A stretch of 64,000 bases of DNA from Octopus vulgaris. Its lineage: Eukaryota. The position numbers were made by a program, and so were the translations under genes. The notes beneath the pieces were generated by a model. The model ran no database searches. It had not been told where the DNA came from and was given only the letters and a program-made list of their open reading frames with translations. The stretch covers positions 145,080,001 to 145,144,000 of the forward strand of contig OX597817.1 of NCBI GenBank assembly GCA_951406725.2, in the 5' to 3' direction. Below are positions 11,372-64,000 of the stretch, in pieces (the stretch's first letter is position 1; each line of letters starts with the position of its first letter).

Positions 11372-11583
11372 GGTGGTAAGTTGGCAGAATCATTAGCACA
11401 CTGGGCAAAATGCTTAGCGGTATTTCGTCTGCCGTTACATTCTAAGTTCAAATTCCGCCGAGGTTGACTTTGCCTTTCATCCTTTCAGGGTCGATTAAAT
11501 AAGTACCAATTACGCACTGGGTTCGATGTAATTAACTTAATCCATTTGTCTGTCCCCTCTATGTTTAGCCCCCTGTAGGCAAT
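11372..11583 (+). mobile_element. SINE family B nested in the (TA)n tract of SINE A
   Basis: GGTGGTAAGTTGGCAGAATC...GTTCAAATTCCGCCGAGG...TTTAGCCCC. Confidence 0.88.
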
Positions 11584-20096: not shown

Positions 20097-20211
20097 AAAT
20101 AACACTTGAATTCCTAAGATGGAGTAAAATAGTTTTATTGAAGTTGAGAAGACTTCACAAACTGTTACTCAGAGTTTCACTTAACCTGTATCAGATAGCC
20201 ATGAGTGTGAT

Positions 20212-20349
20212 ATATATGAGTGTATAAAAATTTATACATGTATTAAGAATGTTCTTTTCATGGCTTAGGATCTGACTGCCCTTTTTAACATGTAAGAAGT
20301 CTACATAGTGGTCTTCTCTCCATGTATAAATTTTTATACACTCATATAT
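20212..20349. repeat. Perfect 29-bp inverted repeat, 80-bp spacer
   Basis: ATATATGAGTGTATAAAAATTTATACATG (20212-20240) and its exact reverse complement (20321-20349). Confidence 0.92.
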
Positions 20350-20447
20350 TATAAAAATATTTACGTCTGCTGACTTTTTTTACACATGCTAACTAACCAC
20401 TGGTATAAATTATTATTTTTAATAATTTTTACCCTTGTATTTATTTA

Positions 20448-30084: not shown

Positions 30085-30135
30085 TTTGTCAAAATATTTT
30101 CATCACTTTGAGACCGCAACCTAGTCACTGACAAA
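30085..30135 (-). ncRNA. Minimal type I hammerhead-ribozyme-like motif (variant core), probably decayed
   Basis: Minus strand: TTTGTCA-GTGACTA-G-GTTGC-GGTCTCAAA-GTGAT-GAAA-ATAT-TT-TGACAAA, with a perfect 7-bp helix I and a palindromic ATAT loop III. Confidence 0.5.
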
Positions 30136-46149: not shown

Positions 46150-48743
46150 GTAATATATATACACACACATATATATATATACATGCATATATAATATTTA
46201 TGTGTATATTTTGTTTTTTTCTTTGTATCAAGTTTTGTTGTTTTGTTACTATATTTTCATATAATTAATTAGTTAATTGCAGGTGTTTCTTAATGATCTT
46301 TTTTGAAATTCTAATTGTTGGAGACAAGTTTTAACTGGACAACTTTCTCACAATATTCTGTGATTTACCGCTTCCATCACAGATTTTAAATTGACAACTG
46401 AATATTTACAGTCCACAGAAGCTTGACTCTCTCTCTATCTCTCTCTCTCTCTCTCTCTTTATCTTTCTCTCTCTCAGTGCTTTTAGAACTAAAGACTTCA
46501 ATTGTTTTCCTATTGAGATCTTCGGAAATTTAGATATTTCAAAGTACTCATTTCAAAATAACATACACTGATATACACAAAACTGTTTAGCTTTGCATGA
46601 GATTTAATTATTGTGTGTGTACAAGAAGGTACATGTATATGTGGGTGTGTTTAAATTAATATTTTTGATAACACAAAACTTTAAAGATTTCTTAAATGAA
46701 ACAAATATTAACATCTACCTTAGTGCTTAAATTATAATCCTAACATAACTTTAATCACATTTCTTATCCTATGAAGAGGCGATTCTATACATTCACTACT
46801 GGAATAAATTAATATTCTTTTTTACTGACTCCTTTCATACAAAGAAATCCAGGGTTATCAAAACTTAGAATTGTTAATAATTCATTGGGCATTTTTTCTT
46901 GTTAGTTTTCAATCTTGTTATTATTACTACAATTAAATCACATCGTAATCTCTTTACTATCCTCAGCAGAGACTATGATTTTGGCAGTCTGGTCAGTTTG
47001 TTGTTGTCCAGATAAAGCTTATGTTCAGTTATTTACACACACACACACACACTGTGGGGTTTAATAAGTTATAATTTGTTTTTATGACAAGTTATATATG
47101 TAATGTTCAGTTTCTAAACAACAACACTTCCAATAACTTTATTCTAATTCTGGCCCCTTCAGTCAAAACATTGGGAGTGCCACTCCAAGAATGACAACAT
47201 CTGGGAAATAACTTATGTTGTTTTGCTAATGGGTTTTATCTTTTGTTTTTTTTTTAATTAAAAATAAATGAGTGAGGAAACATCACTAGTCTTGTGAGAT
47301 TTGGTCATAATCTCTGCAGTGTTTGTGGATAGAATTCAAAGTTCTACATTGTTATGTCTGTCCTGGTTAATCCAAGACATCTGATCGTCTCTTCTAGATG
47401 CAGAAGGAAAAAGTCAATATTGTTTATCTTTTGTTCAGCAGATTAAATACCTTACAAGATTGAATTTTGCCACTCTGTGTTGTGAGTCCAAATCCTCCTT
47501 GGGTCAGTTTTTGCCTCTCACACACACCTCAACAGGGGAGCTTCTGTATAGTCACTCAGCCTGCTAGAAATAACAGCCAAATCTTCCTCAAATTATTTCT
47601 TAAAAAAGAATTCACCCAATAATATAAAGGTGGTGTTGAGTGCCTTGTACATAGGAGAAAGATGAGGTGGAGTTTCAGAATAGTGACAAATATTTCACGG
47701 GGAAAGGCCAAGGGCATGAAATTGGGGACAAAAGTGTAAGAAATCAAACTTTTTTTTTTTGGCGGGGTGGGGGACCCCATTTCTTTGTAAATTGTAATCC
47801 CTCTTGTATGAAATACAGGGATACTAAAAATGTAAAGAGGAAAAAGAAACCCCACTTCCTTGCCCTTTCCCTTCCTCTTGAGGTAAGTAATAGCTATTCC
47901 AAAACTCTGCCAATGATGAAATGGTCATGGCTGGAATCCCTTTGATCATAATTCTGATCAAAATTGATCTGGTGCTAAACAAAAACATGATAAAAGTACC
48001 AATCTTGTATGGGGGAGGGTATTTGATTTCTTCCCTCTTTTTAATGATTGCAGTATAACACCTTATTTATTAATTGTCACCTATTCCCCTCTCTATAAAT
48101 GCCGGTGAGGTGGCTGCTACCATATGCCGTATACTATATCTATGTGTTTACCATTATTGATATTATTTTACTGAGAGCGGCAAAACTGAAGATCATATCC
48201 AAGGTGTGGTTATTGCTACTTAAAACTATTATTTTATTATCATTCCTCAGTTCTACATCATCCCCTTATGTTTAGAAATCATTTATTATTATCATTGGCC
48301 AAATGCCAAAAGTTGGGAACCACTATTATTTTTATTAGATTTTATTATTAGAAATCATTATTATAAATATGTGAGAAGTAACAAACCCTAAAACACCGAA
48401 CCATATTCTTCGCAGTATATTTATTCAGCGACTCACATTTCTGTTTTCAAACTTTTCCATTATCAGCCTTGACTGTTATCTCTTCAGAATCAATAAATAA
48501 CAGCCAGTTATGCTTTGGATGCCGGTTATTTATTTCTTTAGTAATTATAATTAGTAATTATAATTAACCACCTAGTACTTGCTTTTTCTTCTGACACACT
48601 AATTCACAATCGTTAATACTCTTGAGTCTTCATGACATTGATTCACTTAGAAACTCTTCTCCCTGGTTAAATTGGTTGTATGTTTAAACAAAGAAGCCAT
48701 GTATATTAATCACTCTTAAATCCTGTCAACTGAGTAGAACATG

Positions 48744-48784
48744 CACCACTGAGGAAGTTTAATAAGACCGAAACATGTCTGTTG
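48744..48784 (+). ncRNA. Minimal type I hammerhead-ribozyme-like motif
   Basis: CACCA-CTGAGGA-A-GTTT-AATA-AGAC-C-GAAA-CATG-TC^TGTTG, with canonical CUGANGA and GAAA boxes, palindromic CAUG loop III and a GUC site. Confidence 0.6.
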
Positions 48785-49026
48785 TTTTCCCCACTTTGTT
48801 TTAAGGACCAGGTCTACTTCAATCTACCTTGTCTGCAATGTCCAAAAGTTTTGATCAACTGATCTGATCAGGGTTATCGCCATTGCTTTTTTTTTTTTTG
48901 CTTTTTTCTTTAGATTTTGAACACCCACAGAGGGAGTTTTTGTCTACTAATGGTTTTGATAGATAAGCTGATCAAAGTTTTTCTACTTAATATACAACAT
49001 ATGTGAGACTTTACCACATATATTAC

Positions 49027-49212: not shown

Positions 49213-50165
49213 AAAATGGATTGACAGAATCATAAGGGCATTGGACAAAAAGCCTTGTGGTGTTTATGTTCTGACCTCAAATCCCACCAAGGTTAACTTT
49301 GCCTTTCATCCCTCTAGGGTTGATAAAATAAAATTAAGTACCACTATACTGGTGTTGATGGTATCAACTGACCCCTCCCCTCAAAGTTGTTCAGACTTGT
49401 GCCTAAATTAGAAATCATTATCTTTATCCTTATAAGGGTGGTGGATTAGCAGCACTGTTAAAACATTGGACAGAATGCCTTACAATATTTCTTCTTGCTC
49501 TTTAAGTAAATTCTGGGTTCAAATTCTACCAAGGTCATCTTTGTTATTCATCCCTCCGAGGACAATAAATTAAAATATATTGCTAGTACTGGGTTCCATT
49601 AACCCCTACTTTCAAAATTTTTTTCTTTATTGCTTCCAGTCCAAAGAGGCTTAGAGGTTAGTTGGTGAGTTGACAGAATTGTTAAGACATCAAGCAAAAT
49701 CTGTTGTGTTTGGGGAGAGTCATTTTCTTTTTGTGCCTTATAATTTAACACACTCACCGGTAAAATTTCCATTTATTTCTTATTTTTATTTTCCTAAAAT
49801 TTTCATTGCGTCTTGCAACCTTTTCAATAGTCTTGACTCTCTATTTTTTATCAAAATTTTACCGGTGAGTGTGTTAAATTATAAGGCACAAAAAGAAAAT
49901 GACTCTCCCCAGACACAACAGAATATGCTTCAACACATGAACTCACATAAAGAATCTTGCAAACCAAATCCAAAAACGAAATCAGGCAAAATGTTTAGCT
50001 GAATTCCTTCTGGTTTTTCACATCCTAAATTCAAATTCTACCAACATCAACTTTGCCTGTCATCCTTTCGGGATTGATAAAGTACCAGTCACGTACTGAG
50101 GTCAATCTAATTGACTAGCCCCCAGTCCCAAATTCAGGCCTTGTGCCTATATCAGAAACAATTAT
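49213..50165 (+). mobile_element. Three tandem degenerate SINE B-related copies, the third interrupted
   Basis: Repeated TCAAAT(T/C)C(T/C)ACCAA...CTTTG...TCATCC cores at about 49280, 49520 and 50030. Confidence 0.7.
49701..49980. mobile_element. Inverted-arm non-autonomous element (Penelope-like), copy 1
   Basis: Inverted arms of about 69 bp (49700-49768 / 49854-49922) plus a tail of about 60 bp; TSD ATCA(A/G)GCAAAAT at 49689-49700 and 49981-49992. Confidence 0.8.
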
Positions 50166-50389
50166 TATTTCCATTCTAGGCATAATGTTACACAATCTCA
50201 TTTCCAATTCCCTTTTTTTTAAATCTGCGACCTGGCACCACGCCATGTCCTCCCTGGCAGTAAGACCCCCATCTCCTCCCCTGCCAGGGTCATTATTTAC
50301 TCTCACATCCCAGCTACAGCTGGTAGCACTGAAATTCCAAACATACATTAATGCCACGTTGTTTGTTCCATGTTCTTCTCCTCTGACAA

Positions 50390-50938
50390 ATTCTTTGTGT
50401 CTGTGTTCAAGTGTGCATGTTTGTGTGTGTGTCTGTGTGTTAATGCATGCACGCGTGTGCATGTTTTTGTATATATATCAAAGTGTACATATTTGTGTGT
50501 GTCTGTGTGTATTTTTCTGTCCATGTATACATGTTTGTTTTGCATTTGTATGTGTATGTATGTGTGTGCTCAAATGTGCTTATTTGTGTGTGTCTGTGTT
50601 CACATGTGCATGTTTGTGAGTTTGTTCATGTGTGCATATTTTTGTGTGTTCTGTGTGCATGTTCACATACATATATTTATGTGTGTGTCTGTGTATGTCT
50701 GTTCATGTATGTAATGTTTGTGTTTGTATGTCTGTATACTCATGCGTGAATGTGTCATATATCTCTCTTCTCTATTTACTTGTATACTTATATTGTTTTG
50801 TCTTGTTCTAATGCAATTTCCCTCTTATGAGAAATACCTTATTATCATTATTATTATCATTATTATTATTATTATTATTATTACTGTTATTATTATTACT
50901 GTTATTATTATTATTACTGTTATTATTATTATTATTAC

Positions 50939-50975
<37 letters not shown>

Positions 50976-51019
50976 GTTACTGTTACTACTACTACTACTA
51001 TTATTATTATTATTATTAT

Positions 51020-51051
<32 letters not shown>

Positions 51052-51095
51052 ATCAGCTGCAGCAGTGTTGTTATTGCTGTTATCATCATCATCAG
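50390..51095. repeat. TG-rich tract followed by (ATT)n/(TAC)n/(TAG)n microsatellites
   Basis: Direct inspection. Confidence 0.93.
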
Positions 51096-51644
51096 TTGTA
51101 TTTTTTTGACCTGGTTTTAGGCCTGAGCTATGATATCTTATTATCTATACCTCTAAATATCCTTACAAAAACGCATGAACACTACAAAATTCCATTCCAT
51201 TCTCTCTCTCTGACATAAATTTCACATTTTTGCAGTTCAGATTCTTAGTTATTTGCATTTCTATGCCATTATTAATTATATTCCCAGGAAAGGCATGAAT
51301 ATCACTAAATGTTATTTTCTTCCTTTAACAACAATAATAAAACCATAATATTTATAATTTACTTCCACCACATGTATACTAGAATCTACAAATTCTTCCT
51401 TTTTTACTTGTGCATTAGTCATAGAAGGAAGTTTGTTTACAATGGAAAAGCCCATGAAGTCTACATAACAGTAAAACTTTACAATATTACACTGCTTTTA
51501 ACATTAACTCTCTTCTAAAGTGAAATACTACCCGCCCCCTTATGTCCATAATTTTAAGCCAGTCCTGAGGTCACAGACAAAAGCATTCTAACCATGACCA
51601 TCCTGTCTTTTCAGACAGTTTAACTATGACAATGAAAAATGTTT

Positions 51645-51765
51645 TATTGTCTGGGGAGTCATTCTGTTTTAATGCCTTATTAATTAACACACTCACCAGT
51701 TTGATTTCTACTCCTTTATTTATTTTTTGTAAAATTTTCATTACTTCTTGCAACCTTTTCAATAA
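51645..51765. mobile_element. Diverged partial relative of the inverted-arm element
   Basis: TGTCTGGGGAGTCATT...AACACACTCACC...AAAATTTTCATT...CTTGCAACCTTTTCAATA. Confidence 0.65.
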
Positions 51766-52184
51766 TCGTTGAATATGTTTATTCTTTTTTAAAGAAAACA
51801 GGGTGAGATTTGAGAAATACTTGACTGCTATTTCTACAGGGATAGCAACCAGCCATATACAAGTTTTCTCATTGGTTGGCCTTGTCCAAAGTTATGTTGT
51901 TATTTGGCTCCAGATTCTTCTCTATGCTGTGAGTTGGGAGGGAGGAGTATTCCCTATTAATGGTGTGGCATGGGAGGGAGATATCTGTGAATAATAAATA
52001 AAAGAAGGCATCTCACTAGAAAAACACATTTTGTCTTGTTTACAGTCTACAAATTTAGAAACTTAGAAAGACATGAAATAATTTGTTTTTAACAGATAGA
52101 TAAGGCTACAAATAGTATCATGTAAATATCAAGCCTTTTGGACAGAAAAAGTTAAAGGTTAGACATGGGATGTGAACCCAGAAG

Positions 52185-52410
52185 GTAGAAACATTAGCAC
52201 GCTGGGCGAAATGCTTAGCGGTATTTCGTCTGCCGTTACGTTGTGAGTTCAAATTCCGCCGAGGTCGACTTTGCCTTTCATCCTTTCGGTGTCAATAAAT
52301 TAAGTACCAGTTACGTACTGGGGTCGATGTAATCGACTTAATACCTATGTCTGTCCTTGTTTGTCCCCTCTGTGTTTAGCCCATTGTGGGTAATAAAAAA
52401 AATAGGTATG
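52185..52410 (+). mobile_element. SINE family B
   Basis: Family B body and tail. Confidence 0.88.
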
Positions 52411-52963
52411 AGTTCAGATCCCATGGGCAGCCGAATATTCACCCATAAAAAACAAATTCTTTCAGATTTTGCCCTTTTATTATTATTTTTTTATTTTTTA
52501 CCATTCCAATTAATTTCTCCAATTGCTCTGCTACATTCCCTCTGTCTTACTATGTGGCTATTTTTCACTACACCACTCCATCCAGCTACTATGTCACACC
52601 ATCATTACACCATGCTACAGCACTTCACCCTACAACACCATACCATCTTCCTACACTGTGCCATACTGCTGCATCACTTTCACACTATTTCTGCACCACT
52701 CAGACTGGCCATGCCACCATCCCACCGACGCCCACACACTACTACACCACTCCTTTTAGCTAGTCATAGACACATCCTAGTTGGCTAATTTCCATAGTTG
52801 TGCTGACACTAAAGAACTAAGGAGGAACTCTATACTTCAACCCCAACCACACAGTCACCACTGCCTACCAACCACTCCTTGCCCTGTCTGTCTCCATATA
52901 TTTCCTCCCTTTCCATTATTGCATTGTCTTCCTTCCTCTTATTCAACTGTCAAACTCTCCCTC

Positions 52964-53017
<54 letters not shown>

Positions 53018-53524
53018 TCTTTTTCATGCCTTTCTTACACTATCTATTATCTTCTCTATTGTTTTGTCTCCCTATTTTCTTCTTGTTCTCATTTTGTTAT
53101 TTTTTTCCCCTTTTTTATCTACTTCCTGTGCTATTGTTTTGTAAACCTTACTCCAGATATACCAAGATACCACAGACAGTACACTCTATGTCTGTCTTAC
53201 CTGGCAACTCCAAATATGACTTATATACCATCTCCTTTCTTTAAAGTTCAAATGCCATGAACACAGGATGTTGTCAACGGATTTTTGTTGTTGTTGCATT
53301 TTTCACCTTTAAAAATATTGGTCAAGAGAATATTTGAAGAAAAGTCGAAAAAAAAAAACCAAACTTACACACACTTACACATTGGTTTTATGTCAAGTTT
53401 TAATAAAAATTTAACATTAAAGTGAAGAATTGCACAATATTTCTTTTTTTTTTTTTTTTCATAAAGTAGACTTTTTAAACTTTTACATGAAGATGTATGA
53501 CAGTAACTTTGAAGTTTCTGCCTT

Positions 53525-53561
<37 letters not shown>

Positions 53562-53655
53562 TAGTAATTTCAATAAAAAAATTACTCAGCATAAAAGCAC
53601 AATGGAAGTGGGAAATTAATGTAATTTTATATAATCTTTCTCAAATAAATTCATA

Positions 53656-53688
<33 letters not shown>

Positions 53689-53922
53689 TAGAAACATGCA
53701 GAAAAATACCTAACCAAGACCTCAGGGCTTGGAAAATATGCACAACACAGAGAAAATAGAACCGCCAGGTTCCGCACGCATATTTCTTAGAATAATACCA
53801 TTAATATAATGGGAATAGAAAATCAAAACAAAATACTGCACATAGCCAGACATCAGAGAGCTGCACTCGGCAGTGCAGTGAACACATGCAATAAATATTA
53901 CCCTATAAATAATAATAATAAT
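53689..53922 (+). mobile_element. R4/Dong-like LINE 3' fragment in an (AAT)n tract
   Basis: Broken frame KHAEKYLTKTSGL / NMHNTEKIEPPGSARIFLRII* resembles the REL-LINE C-terminus (QK..LLG.A.ILR); (AAT)n on both sides, as expected for TAA-targeting Dong. Confidence 0.55.
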
Positions 53923-54429
53923 TCACAAATTTCCTTATGTATCTTATTTGTATATTTGTGTTAACACCTCTCTTTCTCTATATCTCAGTGTATACATATG
54001 TGTGTGTGTGTGTGTATGTATAATATATATATGAAATACTATTTGTGCTGTATTTTTTTAGATAAATATTATTCAGCATCACTGGTCATTGATCAGTTAA
54101 CATTTACGTCGATTGCATCGACTGACTTGATCTCAACAAAACTGTAGTGCAGCTCAACTTATAAGTCTTTTCTTTATAATAAGCTTGGAAACTCTCTCTC
54201 TCAAGCTCCAAGAGTTACTTTTGTAACTATCAACCTATTTAATATATATTATTATTATTTTTTTTTATATATATTCGGTTCCATGCATCTTAAAGTTTTA
54301 CAGGCTTCTGGCAAACATTTGATGCTTTCAGGTTCAGATAACCAATTCAGTAACTCCTACTAAATGTATTGAGTGCCATCTTCTTTCATTTGTCCACTCA
54401 CTTGTGTGCGTATGTATATATATGTGTAA

Positions 54430-54640
54430 GGTGGCGAGCTGGCAGAAACGTTAGCACGCCGGGTGAAATGCGTAGCCATATTTCATCTGCCGTTACATTC
54501 TGAGTTCAAATTCCGCCGAGGTCGACTTTGCCTTTCATCCTTTCGGGGTCGATAAATAAAGTATCAGTTTCGCACTGGGGTCGGTGTAATTGACTTAATC
54601 CCTTTGTCTATCCTTGTTTGTCGCCCCTATGTTTATCCCC
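54430..54640 (+). mobile_element. SINE family B
   Basis: GGTGGCGAGCTGGCAGAAACGTTAGC head. Confidence 0.88.
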
Positions 54641-54650
54641 TATATATGTA

Positions 54651-54699
<49 letters not shown>

Positions 54700-55104
54700 A
54701 ATCATCTTCATAATCAATTTGATTTCACCATCAATATGATTTTCTGTACTGGCATGGGTTGGATAGTTTGTCATAATTTGAATCAGTTCTTATTCAGGAT
54801 TTTTACTCTCCTAGAATAGTTAGTTTCTATGGCTGGATGTCTTTGCTAACACCAACCACTGGATGTATTTTACCAATGGCACCATGACCCAAGTGGTTGT
54901 CGTGCACCTGGCAAGACTACGAGCCTTGTCTAGCTTACACTGTCTCTATTCATTTATCAATAATATTACTGGGTGCATTTTATCAGAACACCAACCCGAG
55001 ATAGGTTGCTTGTCTCCCTGCCAAACTGAAGAATCCTCTCTATTCTACATTGTCTCTGTTCTTTCAAGGTAAATGTTAACATTTGTGTGCAAATAAAAAT
55101 AAAA

Positions 55105-55520
55105 ATAATAAGAATGAAATTATTGTGTGTAGTGCTCCAGTGCATTACAACTTATCAAAGGTGCATGTATAGTATACAGAATTATGTACAAAAGTCAGGA
55201 AACAGTGTATGAGTCATGATATACATGTGTGGGAGGTGGGGATATCAGGTGTAATGTTGGCGAATTTCAGGAAGCGTTGAAGTTTTAAAGGATGCTATGT
55301 CTTTGCAACTAACAACTGATGCAGGTAGTTTGTTCCATACTTCAGTAACTCTGAGTGTGCAAAAATGTCTCCAAAAATCATGATAACTGTGCTGTTTTCT
55401 GACTTTGTAGGCATGCCCACATGTGTTAGATACATGGATTTCAAAAAATGTGGTCATGATTGTTGTTGGCACGATGGTTAATAATTTTGTGGGTGTTTAC
55501 CAAAGTCAGTTGCCTGAAGA
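55105..55520 (-). mobile_element. CR1-group LINE 3' end (ORF2 C-terminus and 3' UTR)
   Basis: NTCGHAYKV...RHFCTLRVTEVWNKLPASVV...SFK matches the TRGH...FF..RV...WN.LP..VV...FK signature. Confidence 0.85.
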
Positions 55521-55607
55521 GTGTGATGACCAAAAGAGGGGAAAGAAGAGGTAGTATGAGTGTGATAAGGCATCAGAATGATTGAAACCATGCCTGGCCA
55601 TGGGGAA

Positions 55608-55733
55608 ATATAGATGTTTTCGATCTAGTTTGGATTCTTTGCTATCAAATTTGAATTCTTTGCCATCAAATTTGTTTGCAAAGAATTCAAATTTGATGGC
55701 AAAGAATCCAAACTAGATCGAAATCATCTATAT
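55608..55733. repeat. Near-perfect 126-nt foldback hairpin
   Basis: 56-nt arms (55608-55663 / 55678-55733) with 2 mismatches and a 14-nt loop. Confidence 0.92.
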
Positions 55734-56577
55734 AATTTGGTTTGGAAACAGGTGAGGGTTGGCAACAGGAAGGGCACCCAGCTGCAGAAAATCCACCTCA
55801 TCAAATTCCATCCCATGCAAGTGTGGAAAAGTGGACATTAGAACAATAGTGATGATGATGTATGTGTGTTGAGAGAGAGAAAAAAAATCAATAATGGAGA
55901 AATACAAGCATGCATACACTTAATCACACACATAGACACATACATGTAGTCAATCATTTATTCTTCTCCATATTTTCCCAACACCCCACAAAGTAATGCA
56001 CATACACTTATACATATATTCATAGCACAACACTTATATTTTTACAGCTTAACACAGAAAGGCACACGTATACATAGGCATTAGCAGAGCATAACATATG
56101 AAGGTATATATGCTAGAATACACATATTGAGAAGAAAAACAAATAACAATAAAAAATTTTTGACAGTTTTTTTTTTGTTTACATTTTATCATATCTATTG
56201 ATTGTATATATTCTTAGTATAGGTGTCATTATATCAGCTTGTTTTCAGTGCTTCGTCTTCTACAGTACTGGAAGTTGTGTGAGGAATATGAAATAGAATT
56301 TTTAGTAAATTTCTATGAAAACATCAATGAGGGGAAAAATTAAATGGAGGAAATGCTATTTTATTTTATCATTAATTTCGTCTTAAACTGTATTTCTGTC
56401 TGAAATCGTTATAGAAAGTACAGGTGCATAGAGATATTGACTGAAGAAAAACTGACGGTTTATAGATTGACTGGAATTATCATCATCGTCAACTTTATCT
56501 ATATCAACAACAACATCATAATCATCGTCATCATCATCATTTGATTGGCTTCAGCAAAATAGGTTTTCCTGTATTTA

Positions 56578-56611
<34 letters not shown>

Positions 56612-56674
56612 CATCATCATCATCATCATTCTGCATGTCCAATAGTTTATTTTCAGACACAGTAATAAAGACTA

Positions 56675-56961
56675 TTCTGTTGTGTCTGGGGAGAGTCAGT
56701 TTCTTTTTGTGCCTTATAATTTAACATACTCACCGGTAAAATTTCCACTTATTTCTTATTTATATTTTCTTAAAATTTTCGCTGCATCTTGCAACATTTT
56801 CAATAGTCTTGACTCTCTATTTTTGATCAAAATTTTACCGGTGAGTGTGTTAAATTATAAGACACAAAAAGAAAATGACTCTCCCCAGACACAACAGAAT
56901 ATGCTTTAACACATGGAATTATATAAAAAATCTTGCAAACCAAATCCAAAAACGAAATATT
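56675..56961. mobile_element. Inverted-arm non-autonomous element (Penelope-like), copy 2
   Basis: Colinear with 49701-49980; TSD ATAAAGACTA at 56665-56674 and 56962-56971. Confidence 0.8.
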
Positions 56962-57569
56962 ATAAAGACTAGTTATTGTAAAAGTGCTGGACAACTGACT
57001 AAACAGGTTAAAATTATATTACAGCCATTGTATTGTACTCTTGAACAAAGCACATACCTATCTGCCTCTGTCTTCTCGGCTGACTCTAGGTTCCACTTCT
57101 TCACAATTGAGAAGTTAGTTGTAGGAAAAGCAGCAAAGCACTATTAAAACAAATGTTCAATCAGTATACTAATCCTGAAATTTGTTGGTAATTTTAATAT
57201 GGAAGGAATTTAGTAAAAACTGACAAAGAAAAAAAAAAAAGAGAGAGAAAAAAATACATAATTAAACTCAAAAGTAAAAAAAAATCTGTCAGGCTTGCAG
57301 CTGTTTAATTATGAATACTAAAATACATTTATTTATAAATAATGATCGGTGTAAATAAATCTAATTAGTGACATATGTTTATTGTAGTTTATTGTAGTAC
57401 ATATAATGATCAAAGCATGGTTAGGTGGTTCAGAAGTTCACTTCAAAATCATGAGACACTAGGTTCAGTCCCACTGTAGAATCTTCAGCAAAAGTTTTTT
57501 ACAATAGCCTTGAGTCGAACCAAAGCTTAGTAAATGGCAAATGGAAACTGTATAGAAGCCTGTCATACA

Positions 57570-63100: not shown

Positions 63101-64000
63101 TTTCAAATAAATAATAATGGAAGACTATAAATGTCCCAAGATTGTCTTATGAGCTGGATTAAGTCAGTGCCTTCAGACTATCATCTTGGTCATTTTTGCA
63201 ACTGCTTGAATATTAGTTTCCATCTGGTATATTTTCACAGATTAAGCCTAATGTGTACATGCAGATATGCACATGCAAAGTTTCTTAATCACATGATTTT
63301 TAGTATGTTCATGTTACATTAACTTAATACTTTGATTTCATATCTAGAATATTTTCTGCTATGTTAAATCAAGTTCATTTTATTTATTCATTTTATTTTA
63401 TTTTATTTTATTTTATTTCTTGCTTTGCCTAATTTTCTATATGCTTATAATCCTGGTTTAATCACTCATTCAAAATATGCTCTATATTTCACCTGATTAA
63501 ATTACTTAAACACAGAACAGAGGCAATGAGTGAGCTTTTATACAAGTTTGCTACTAACGCAGTGCCTAAATTTTGCTATAAAATGAATTTCTGCCAAGTT
63601 AGATGTTGCTTTCAGCTGCCCTTTGTCTTAAAAATTGAATACCAAATGCTGGAAACAGCATTTTTATGGACAGAAAGCTAAATTAATAATTCATTTTGCA
63701 AGATTCCTGATGTGAAATCATGTGTTGAAACAGATATTGTTTTATTTTGGGAGAATGGAGTAAGTGAAGCAAGAACACACACGGAAACAAAAAGTGTTGC
63801 TGAAGAGGTCACAGATGTGTGATGAAAGATTTCTGGACAATGGACATGAGTTAAAGTAATAAAATAAGAACAGTAATAAACAAGTGAAGAGAACATATAT
63901 ATATATATATATATATAGTGCATGCGTTTATTTGACAAAAAGAAAAGAAAAGACCATCCCGGAATACAACAATAAATTAATAATGTTCCATTCAAATTAA

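Follow-up and report, generated by a model that had tools for sequence, protein, structure and literature searches.

What kind of element leaves a hairpin with a hammerhead ribozyme motif and a tail on one arm only? The question is raised by two such repeats in a 64,000-nt stretch of the Octopus vulgaris genome (assembly GCA_951406725.2, contig OX597817.1, positions 145,080,001 to 145,144,000, forward strand), referred to here as the window and numbered from its first letter. Copy 1 (49700-49982) and copy 2 (56676-56958) are 93.6% identical across 283 bp, and in each the two inverted arms pair over 69 bp, with 1 mismatch in copy 1 and 3 in copy 2, the right arm alone continuing into a 60-bp tail. 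The target site duplications (TSDs) differ, that of copy 1 being 12 bp with 1 mismatch and overlapping the element ends, while copy 2 has 10 bp exact or, alternatively, 12 bp with 1 mismatch. An initial annotation of the window had described this anatomy correctly, along with a diverged partial copy near 51645-51765, which extends over 51648-51778 (82% identity) and is solo, with no inverted partner. It had taken the repeats for a non-autonomous, hairpin-forming retroelement family. With a probability of about 0.93, the hairpins are instead 5'-truncated head-to-head insertions of the termini of autonomous Penelope-like elements (PLEs) of the Neptune/Nematis type, likely made anew at each insertion.

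The parent element

The terminus found in the window belongs to an autonomous Neptune/Nematis-type PLE that encodes a reverse transcriptase (RT) together with a GIY-YIG endonuclease at the C-terminus. Some copies elsewhere in the 2.8-Gb genome extend past the inner end of the window copies; a 27-nt motif of this extension has 396 exact matches, and at the longer loci the extension passes through a CA-rich 3' untranslated region (UTR) into an open reading frame (ORF). Locus L061 holds, inside one TSD and in this order, an inverted tail piece, a truncated RT, the thumb, the linker, GIY-YIG, the 3' UTR, the hammerhead and the arm. Its RT fragment retains the conserved A and C motifs, and its endonuclease matches PF01541 above the cut-off (E 8e-5). 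At L104 the hammerhead, arm and tail continue directly into the ORF. These two loci bear out the Penelope-like origin proposed in the initial annotation and give the linkage to an RT/GIY-YIG ORF that it had named as a check. A C-X4-C-X2-C linker precedes the VVY/YIG motifs of the C-terminal endonuclease, and by this linker and the endonuclease position the window family is classified as Neptune/Nematis type, the two being taken jointly.

Exact 27-mer counts fall from the tail (3,400) through the hammerhead (1,454), 3' UTR (396) and endonuclease (116) to the RT (36), the gradient expected from 5' truncation, although each count is a minimum for copy number and mutability is not the same for all motifs. 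Among 20 loci fetched by RT similarity, 12 have the window family's terminus and 5 are members of a sister family whose 1312-aa ORFs are intact; in the other 3 (L088 and L095 among them) the window family's end is absent within the fetched stretch. At E<=1e-20 the RT-endonuclease frame has 182 homologues, the best of which (62% identity) is labelled Octopus vulgaris. A PDB sequence search with this frame returned a single chance match (E 0.33), and the intact 1312-aa sister ORF had no Pfam match at E<=0.1.

The tail is coding and is the start of the element's ORF. Translated together, the arm's final 24 nt and the 60-nt tail give 28 residues, which share 70% identity with the N-terminus of the intact 1312-aa sister ORF, and the first 27 codons differ from that family by 8 synonymous-only and 7 replacement differences. 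The outer ends of the doublets are fixed at ORF nt +84 (tail) and about +24 (tail-less).

Junctions and target sites across the genome

A DNA search with the window element gave 3,163 candidates, 40 of which were scored. The 30 best-scoring copies have constant outer ends and, the window pair excepted, a different junction in each; their lengths lie between 269 and 305 bp, in a set chosen by likeness to the query. A second sample, meant to avoid the bias of best matches, was drawn from the tail matches of the first contig, largely in positional order (90 loci, 89 aligned). An inverted partner is present at 54 of the 89, and all but two of these partners (52/54) end 52-65 nt short of the tail end. 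After removal of 2 flank-sharing duplicates (L165, L166) and 4 pairs with gaps of at least 40 nt, the breakpoints of all 48 head-to-head pairs are distinct (22 overlapping, 22 with filler, 4 blunt). Unselected doublets, from the first 30 sampled loci, measure 120-958 bp. In the sampled copies the outer ends are homogeneous, the inner junctions being copy-specific, and the description "fixed-structure" fits the two window copies and no others, since the junction differs in the other copies compared. Three loci (L132, L165, L166) have an identical junction and identical flanks across 1.2 Mb of one contig, and are a segmental duplication. Rare doublets with a tail on both arms also occur (L174, L163).

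Duplications of 10-15 bp are present at 21 of 25 non-simple flank pairs, compared with 22 of 600 mismatched controls; of the 36 pairs with scorable ends, 11 in simple repeats had been set aside, and 1 mismatch and an end overlap of up to 4 nt were allowed. The duplicated sequences are 80% A+T and, as the initial annotation had it, variable in length.

Sister families

The family with intact ORFs (L097:2442-6377 and L098-L101) has an asparagine-rich insert in its 1312-aa ORFs and (TA)n targets. With 2,236 exact tail matches, it too forms head-to-head doublets, whose second end has an equivalent position. Its many near-identical copies suggest a young family, likely recently active. A third family is represented in the window by a doublet at 63693-63960, composed of a short inverted tail piece and a sense piece, the latter containing at 63800 a minimal hammerhead of canonical C3-G8 type; it has 231 exact tail matches, and two of its loci bear the endonuclease end of an ORF. 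A search for intermediate families among 20 weaker RT matches found only decayed members of the two known families.

The hammerhead motif

The hammerhead string given in the initial annotation is present as described on the minus strand of copy 1 (49830-49794). Its predicted fold has a U3-A8 core, an additional nucleotide separating positions 9 and 10.1, a 5-bp helix II, a palindromic AAUU helix III, a 3-bp helix I and U at position 17; copy 2 has lost the outer pair of helix I. A search of the 64 kb, both strands included, with a minimal-hammerhead descriptor in which the 3-8 pair covaries finds only two sites, copy 1 and 63800. An Rfam scan of the window reported no hammerhead family at E<=1, only microRNA-like chance matches.

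In all three sister families the fold occupies a corresponding position upstream of the ATG. The cores differ: the window family has U3-A8, and the other two have C3-G8, combined with C9 in the young family and with A9 in the third. The proposed covariation of the 3-8 pair holds between sister families. In six sequences (two per family, and so three lineages only) 59 of 60 cells are paired, and both sides have changed in 4 of the 10 pairs across the families, including 3-8 and two helix II pairs. On this pairing and these compensatory changes, the fold is judged to be real. Its self-cleavage activity is doubtful, because helix I has only 3 bp and position 17 is U. Within the window family the core has fewer mismatches than the rest (17/450 against 252/3375 elsewhere, P 0.003), but the ORF start is as low (29/829), so that the low rate is not specific to the core and a special conservation of it was rejected.

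Other hammerhead-like strings occur in the window. By eye, 48740-48790 (plus strand) and 30085-30135 (minus strand) read as decayed type I minimal hammerheads of other families, the former C3-G8 with a palindromic helix III and the latter with a G3-type core, and 20159-20350 is a further asymmetric inverted repeat with a hammerhead-like string.

Where the inner ends fall

Inner ends are concentrated in one zone. Among 127 pieces of the window family, 53 extend as far as the zone 185-202 nt from the tail end and 31 of these stop within it, a rate of 3.3% per nt compared with 0.6-1.2% over the preceding 100 nt (P 1e-13, for a stop window picked after viewing the data), and none of 16 pieces stops between 230 and 414 nt. 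All three pieces in the window that reach this zone stop inside it. The young sister family has stop zones at 262-290 nt (18/65) and 99-116 nt (16/112).

It is possible, and is proposed here tentatively, that the stop zone, at 185-202 nt or, for the young family, at 262-290 nt, marks where the mRNA has its 5' end and that the hairpins are genomic "strong-stop" products. Penelope has a transcript start inside its pseudo-long terminal repeat (pLTR) (PMC2377424), and for this reason the stop zone may be an mRNA 5' end. Reverse transcription would begin within the ORF of a transcript present as a monomer, at 24 or 84 nt, and run off the 5' end; if this short cDNA were placed upstream of a full copy, it would provide the route, so far missing, for regenerating the ~200-bp Penelope pLTRs. 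RT pausing or an end-joining bias may also account for the zone. If it is the transcript start, this would bear on how pLTRs are regenerated, a question that PMC2377424 calls open, and the intact ORFs of the young family make the idea testable. The literature searched yielded no account of a strong-stop origin for Penelope doublets. Contigs from sequencing runs cannot show transcript starts; no splice joint was seen in them.

In L098 of the young family, inner ends 243-286 nt upstream of the tail end cluster, by a post hoc reading, round an AAAATGG word, which resembles a YY1 site. Another 37 nt on, four ends (-243 to -245) lie at a splice-donor-like GTAAGT; an explanation of these ends by splicing was rejected, as it was post hoc and no matching acceptor was found.

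Origin of the hairpins

The head-to-head insertions would begin with the element's endonuclease nicking both strands of AT-rich DNA about 10-12 nt apart. Each 3' end would then prime reverse transcription at one or other of two sites inside the RNA, separated by 60 nt, and the use of two priming sites would leave one arm with a tail and the other without; both steps are modelled on a Poseidon element. The two cDNAs would both end early, with 185-202 nt from the tail end as the commonest stopping point, and would be joined by microhomology or short filler. The hammerhead would be a passenger of the pLTR; if it works, the prediction is that it does so only as a dimer.

Several observations weigh against this account. 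The window copies have common breakpoints and 11 of 12 filler nucleotides in common, yet their TSDs are different, so that independent insertion alone is insufficient. The strong stop zone gives many copies a similar size. The window family shows no intact ORF, its longest frame being 665 aa among 150 scored of 1323 candidates, and its own enzyme may be extinct or unsampled. The RT match in Pfam (RVT_1) is below the cut-off (E 0.008), the RT being identified by motifs and homologues. The two-priming step, finally, relies on one in vitro study of another clade. As for the junction common to the window copies, these lie 7 kb apart in the same orientation, and the simplest reading is that one junction was converted by the other; a divergence of 6.5% (16/248) places them close to the lower quartile for random pairs, whose median is 9.5%. 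A local gene conversion is the likely event, and a one-off local move as a unit may be an alternative.

The common junction with different TSDs would also suit a separate, non-autonomous mini-element of fixed hairpin structure, copied as a unit by Penelope enzymes. The narrow length range of the 30 best matches points the same way, though these were selected for likeness to the query, and mobilisation in trans between pLTRs has been reported (PMC3846280). Such a family, the one initially annotated, is highly improbable: the junction of the window copies has only 2 matches in 2.8 Gb with up to 2 mismatches allowed, all 48 sampled pairs differ from each other, unselected pairs vary widely in length, and the only triple with a common junction also has common flanks. 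The supposed unit is pLTR plus tail of the autonomous element, continuous with its ORF. The long inverted arms and TSDs near 10-12 bp could recall a DNA transposon or miniature inverted-repeat transposable element (MITE), Mutator-like with a 9-11-bp TSD, or else an element of Helitron type whose inverted repeats are subterminal. The arms, however, are asymmetric, arm and TSD lengths vary, a 5'-truncation gradient is seen, and the direct link is to RT/GIY-YIG rather than a transposase; the ORF linkage refutes this class, which is left with a negligible probability, and the view in the initial annotation that the repeat is not a MITE with terminal inverted repeats is upheld.

A role of the ribozyme in setting the inner ends, with the cleaved RNA as template as in retrozymes, is very unlikely. 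The fold is kept in three sister families with compensatory changes, and the window family has a slight excess of ends near the predicted cut, which is not significant (11/78 at risk, P 0.07). In the young sister family the ends show no excess there (3/80, P 0.42), and the main stop zone is placed upstream of the predicted cut, at a distance of 30-45 nt. The loci examined showed no tandem monomers, and ribozyme mutants had no effect on insertion in vitro (PMC11167929). The hammerhead leaves no detectable mark on the insertion ends.

Comparison with known elements

EN+ (endonuclease-bearing) PLEs of the Neptune/Nematis type (Craig et al. 2021, PMC8557442) likewise have a single ORF with RT, a CX2-5CxxC linker and GIY-YIG at the C-terminus. 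They are heavily 5'-truncated, with an inverted truncated copy and a tail at one end only, insert into microsatellite or AT-rich targets, and carry the hammerhead in the pLTR; the tail is 60 bp here and 30-40 bp there. Naiad and Chlamys, with an N-terminal endonuclease and no canonical hammerhead, were rejected as relatives, since here the endonuclease is C-terminal and the hammerhead has the standard type I order.

In Adineta vaga, Penelope (Arkhipova et al. 2013, PMC3846280) has inverted pLTRs of about 190-220 bp that include the first ORF codons and are extended by a tail, with TSDs of 8-10 bp. The arm holds 8 codons here and 12 in Adineta, or 28 and 22 with the tail. The Adineta elements also have asparagine-rich inserts and a 1309-aa ORF, compared with 1312 aa in the young sister family, whereas the octopus genome has thousands of ORF-less head-to-head doublets.

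The Poseidon element PAc of Anolis carolinensis (Frangieh et al. 2024, PMC11167929) cuts both strands of AT-rich DNA in vitro and can dispense with its hammerhead. Two RT start sites inside the ORF start explain the tail in PAc as they would here, at about +111-118 in PAc and at +24 and +84, judging by copy ends, in the octopus family, whose hammerhead differs in being wholly upstream of the ATG. The octopus copy ends give independent genomic support, from a different clade, for two internal RT starts, and they argue against insertion ends set by ribozyme cleavage.

The minimal hammerheads described for PLEs (Cervera and de la Pena 2014, PMC4209133) are also type I, with an extra nucleotide between 9 and 10.1, G10.1-C11.1 and a palindromic 15.2-16.2. 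Helix I has 3 bp here, 4-5 bp in PLE hammerheads and 2 bp in D. virilis; the 5-bp helix II and U at position 17 are further differences. The U3-A8 variant is known from Cercyon (about 1,300 matches), and hammerhead pairs on opposite strands, 100-700 bp apart, have been recorded in PLEs (PMC4209133). The suggestion of an undescribed set of elements thus falls away: publications already report U3-A8 cores, hammerhead pairs on opposite strands, and truncated copies in inverted arrangement that have a tail on one side. Metazoan non-LTR (non-long terminal repeat) retrozymes (bioRxiv 10.64898/2026.07.22.740005) are likewise short hammerhead-bearing sequences tied to PLE pLTRs. They are tandem head-to-tail non-coding monomers, whereas the octopus doublet is a head-to-head pair of a coding terminus. 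An octopus repeat annotation from 2026 (PMC13282606) includes 30 Penelope families as recently active, and the window family is possibly already catalogued there or in Repbase/Dfam. For annotation, the lesson is that thousands of apparent ribozyme-bearing hairpin MITEs in the octopus genome are the debris of ordinary PLEs.

Features of the window

The tail-less piece of copy 1 begins 199 nt upstream of the tail end, takes in the hammerhead and the 5' UTR, and stops at ORF nt +24. Coordinates are collected in Table 1.

Table 1. Parts of the hairpin copies and their target sites, in window positions
Feature	Position	Strand	Remarks
Left TSD, copy 1	49689..49700	+	12 bp, last base common with element
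Tail-less piece, copy 1	49700..49840	-	RNA sense is the minus strand
Hammerhead, copy 1	49794..49830	-	Predicted type I minimal, U3-A8 core
Junction filler, copy 1	49841..49852	.	12 nt, otherwise found only in copy 2
Tail-bearing piece, copy 1	49853..49982	+	130 nt, 5'-truncated; RNA sense is the plus strand
First 28 ORF codons, copy 1	49899..49982	+	Final 24 nt of arm and 60-nt tail
60-bp tail, copy 1	49923..49982	+	Putative gap between two RT start sites (mechanism: PMC11167929)
Right TSD, copy 1	49981..49992	+	1 mismatch
Older solo tail-less piece, same family	51648..51778	-	82% identity, ends ~200 nt from tail end
Left TSD, copy 2	56665..56674	+	10 bp exact
Tail-less piece, copy 2	56676..56816	-	Contains decayed hammerhead (56806-56770)
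Junction filler, copy 2	56817..56828	.	11/12 nt same as copy 1
Tail-bearing piece, copy 2	56829..56958	+	ORF start 56875, tail 56899-56958
Right TSD, copy 2	56962..56971	+	10 bp

An abundant family of about 235 bp is present in the window at 11379, 19654, 19871, 21234, 33575, 36725, 52180 and 54437. It resembles a short interspersed element (SINE) and presumably matches octopus SINEs. Two decayed copies of this family flank copy 1.

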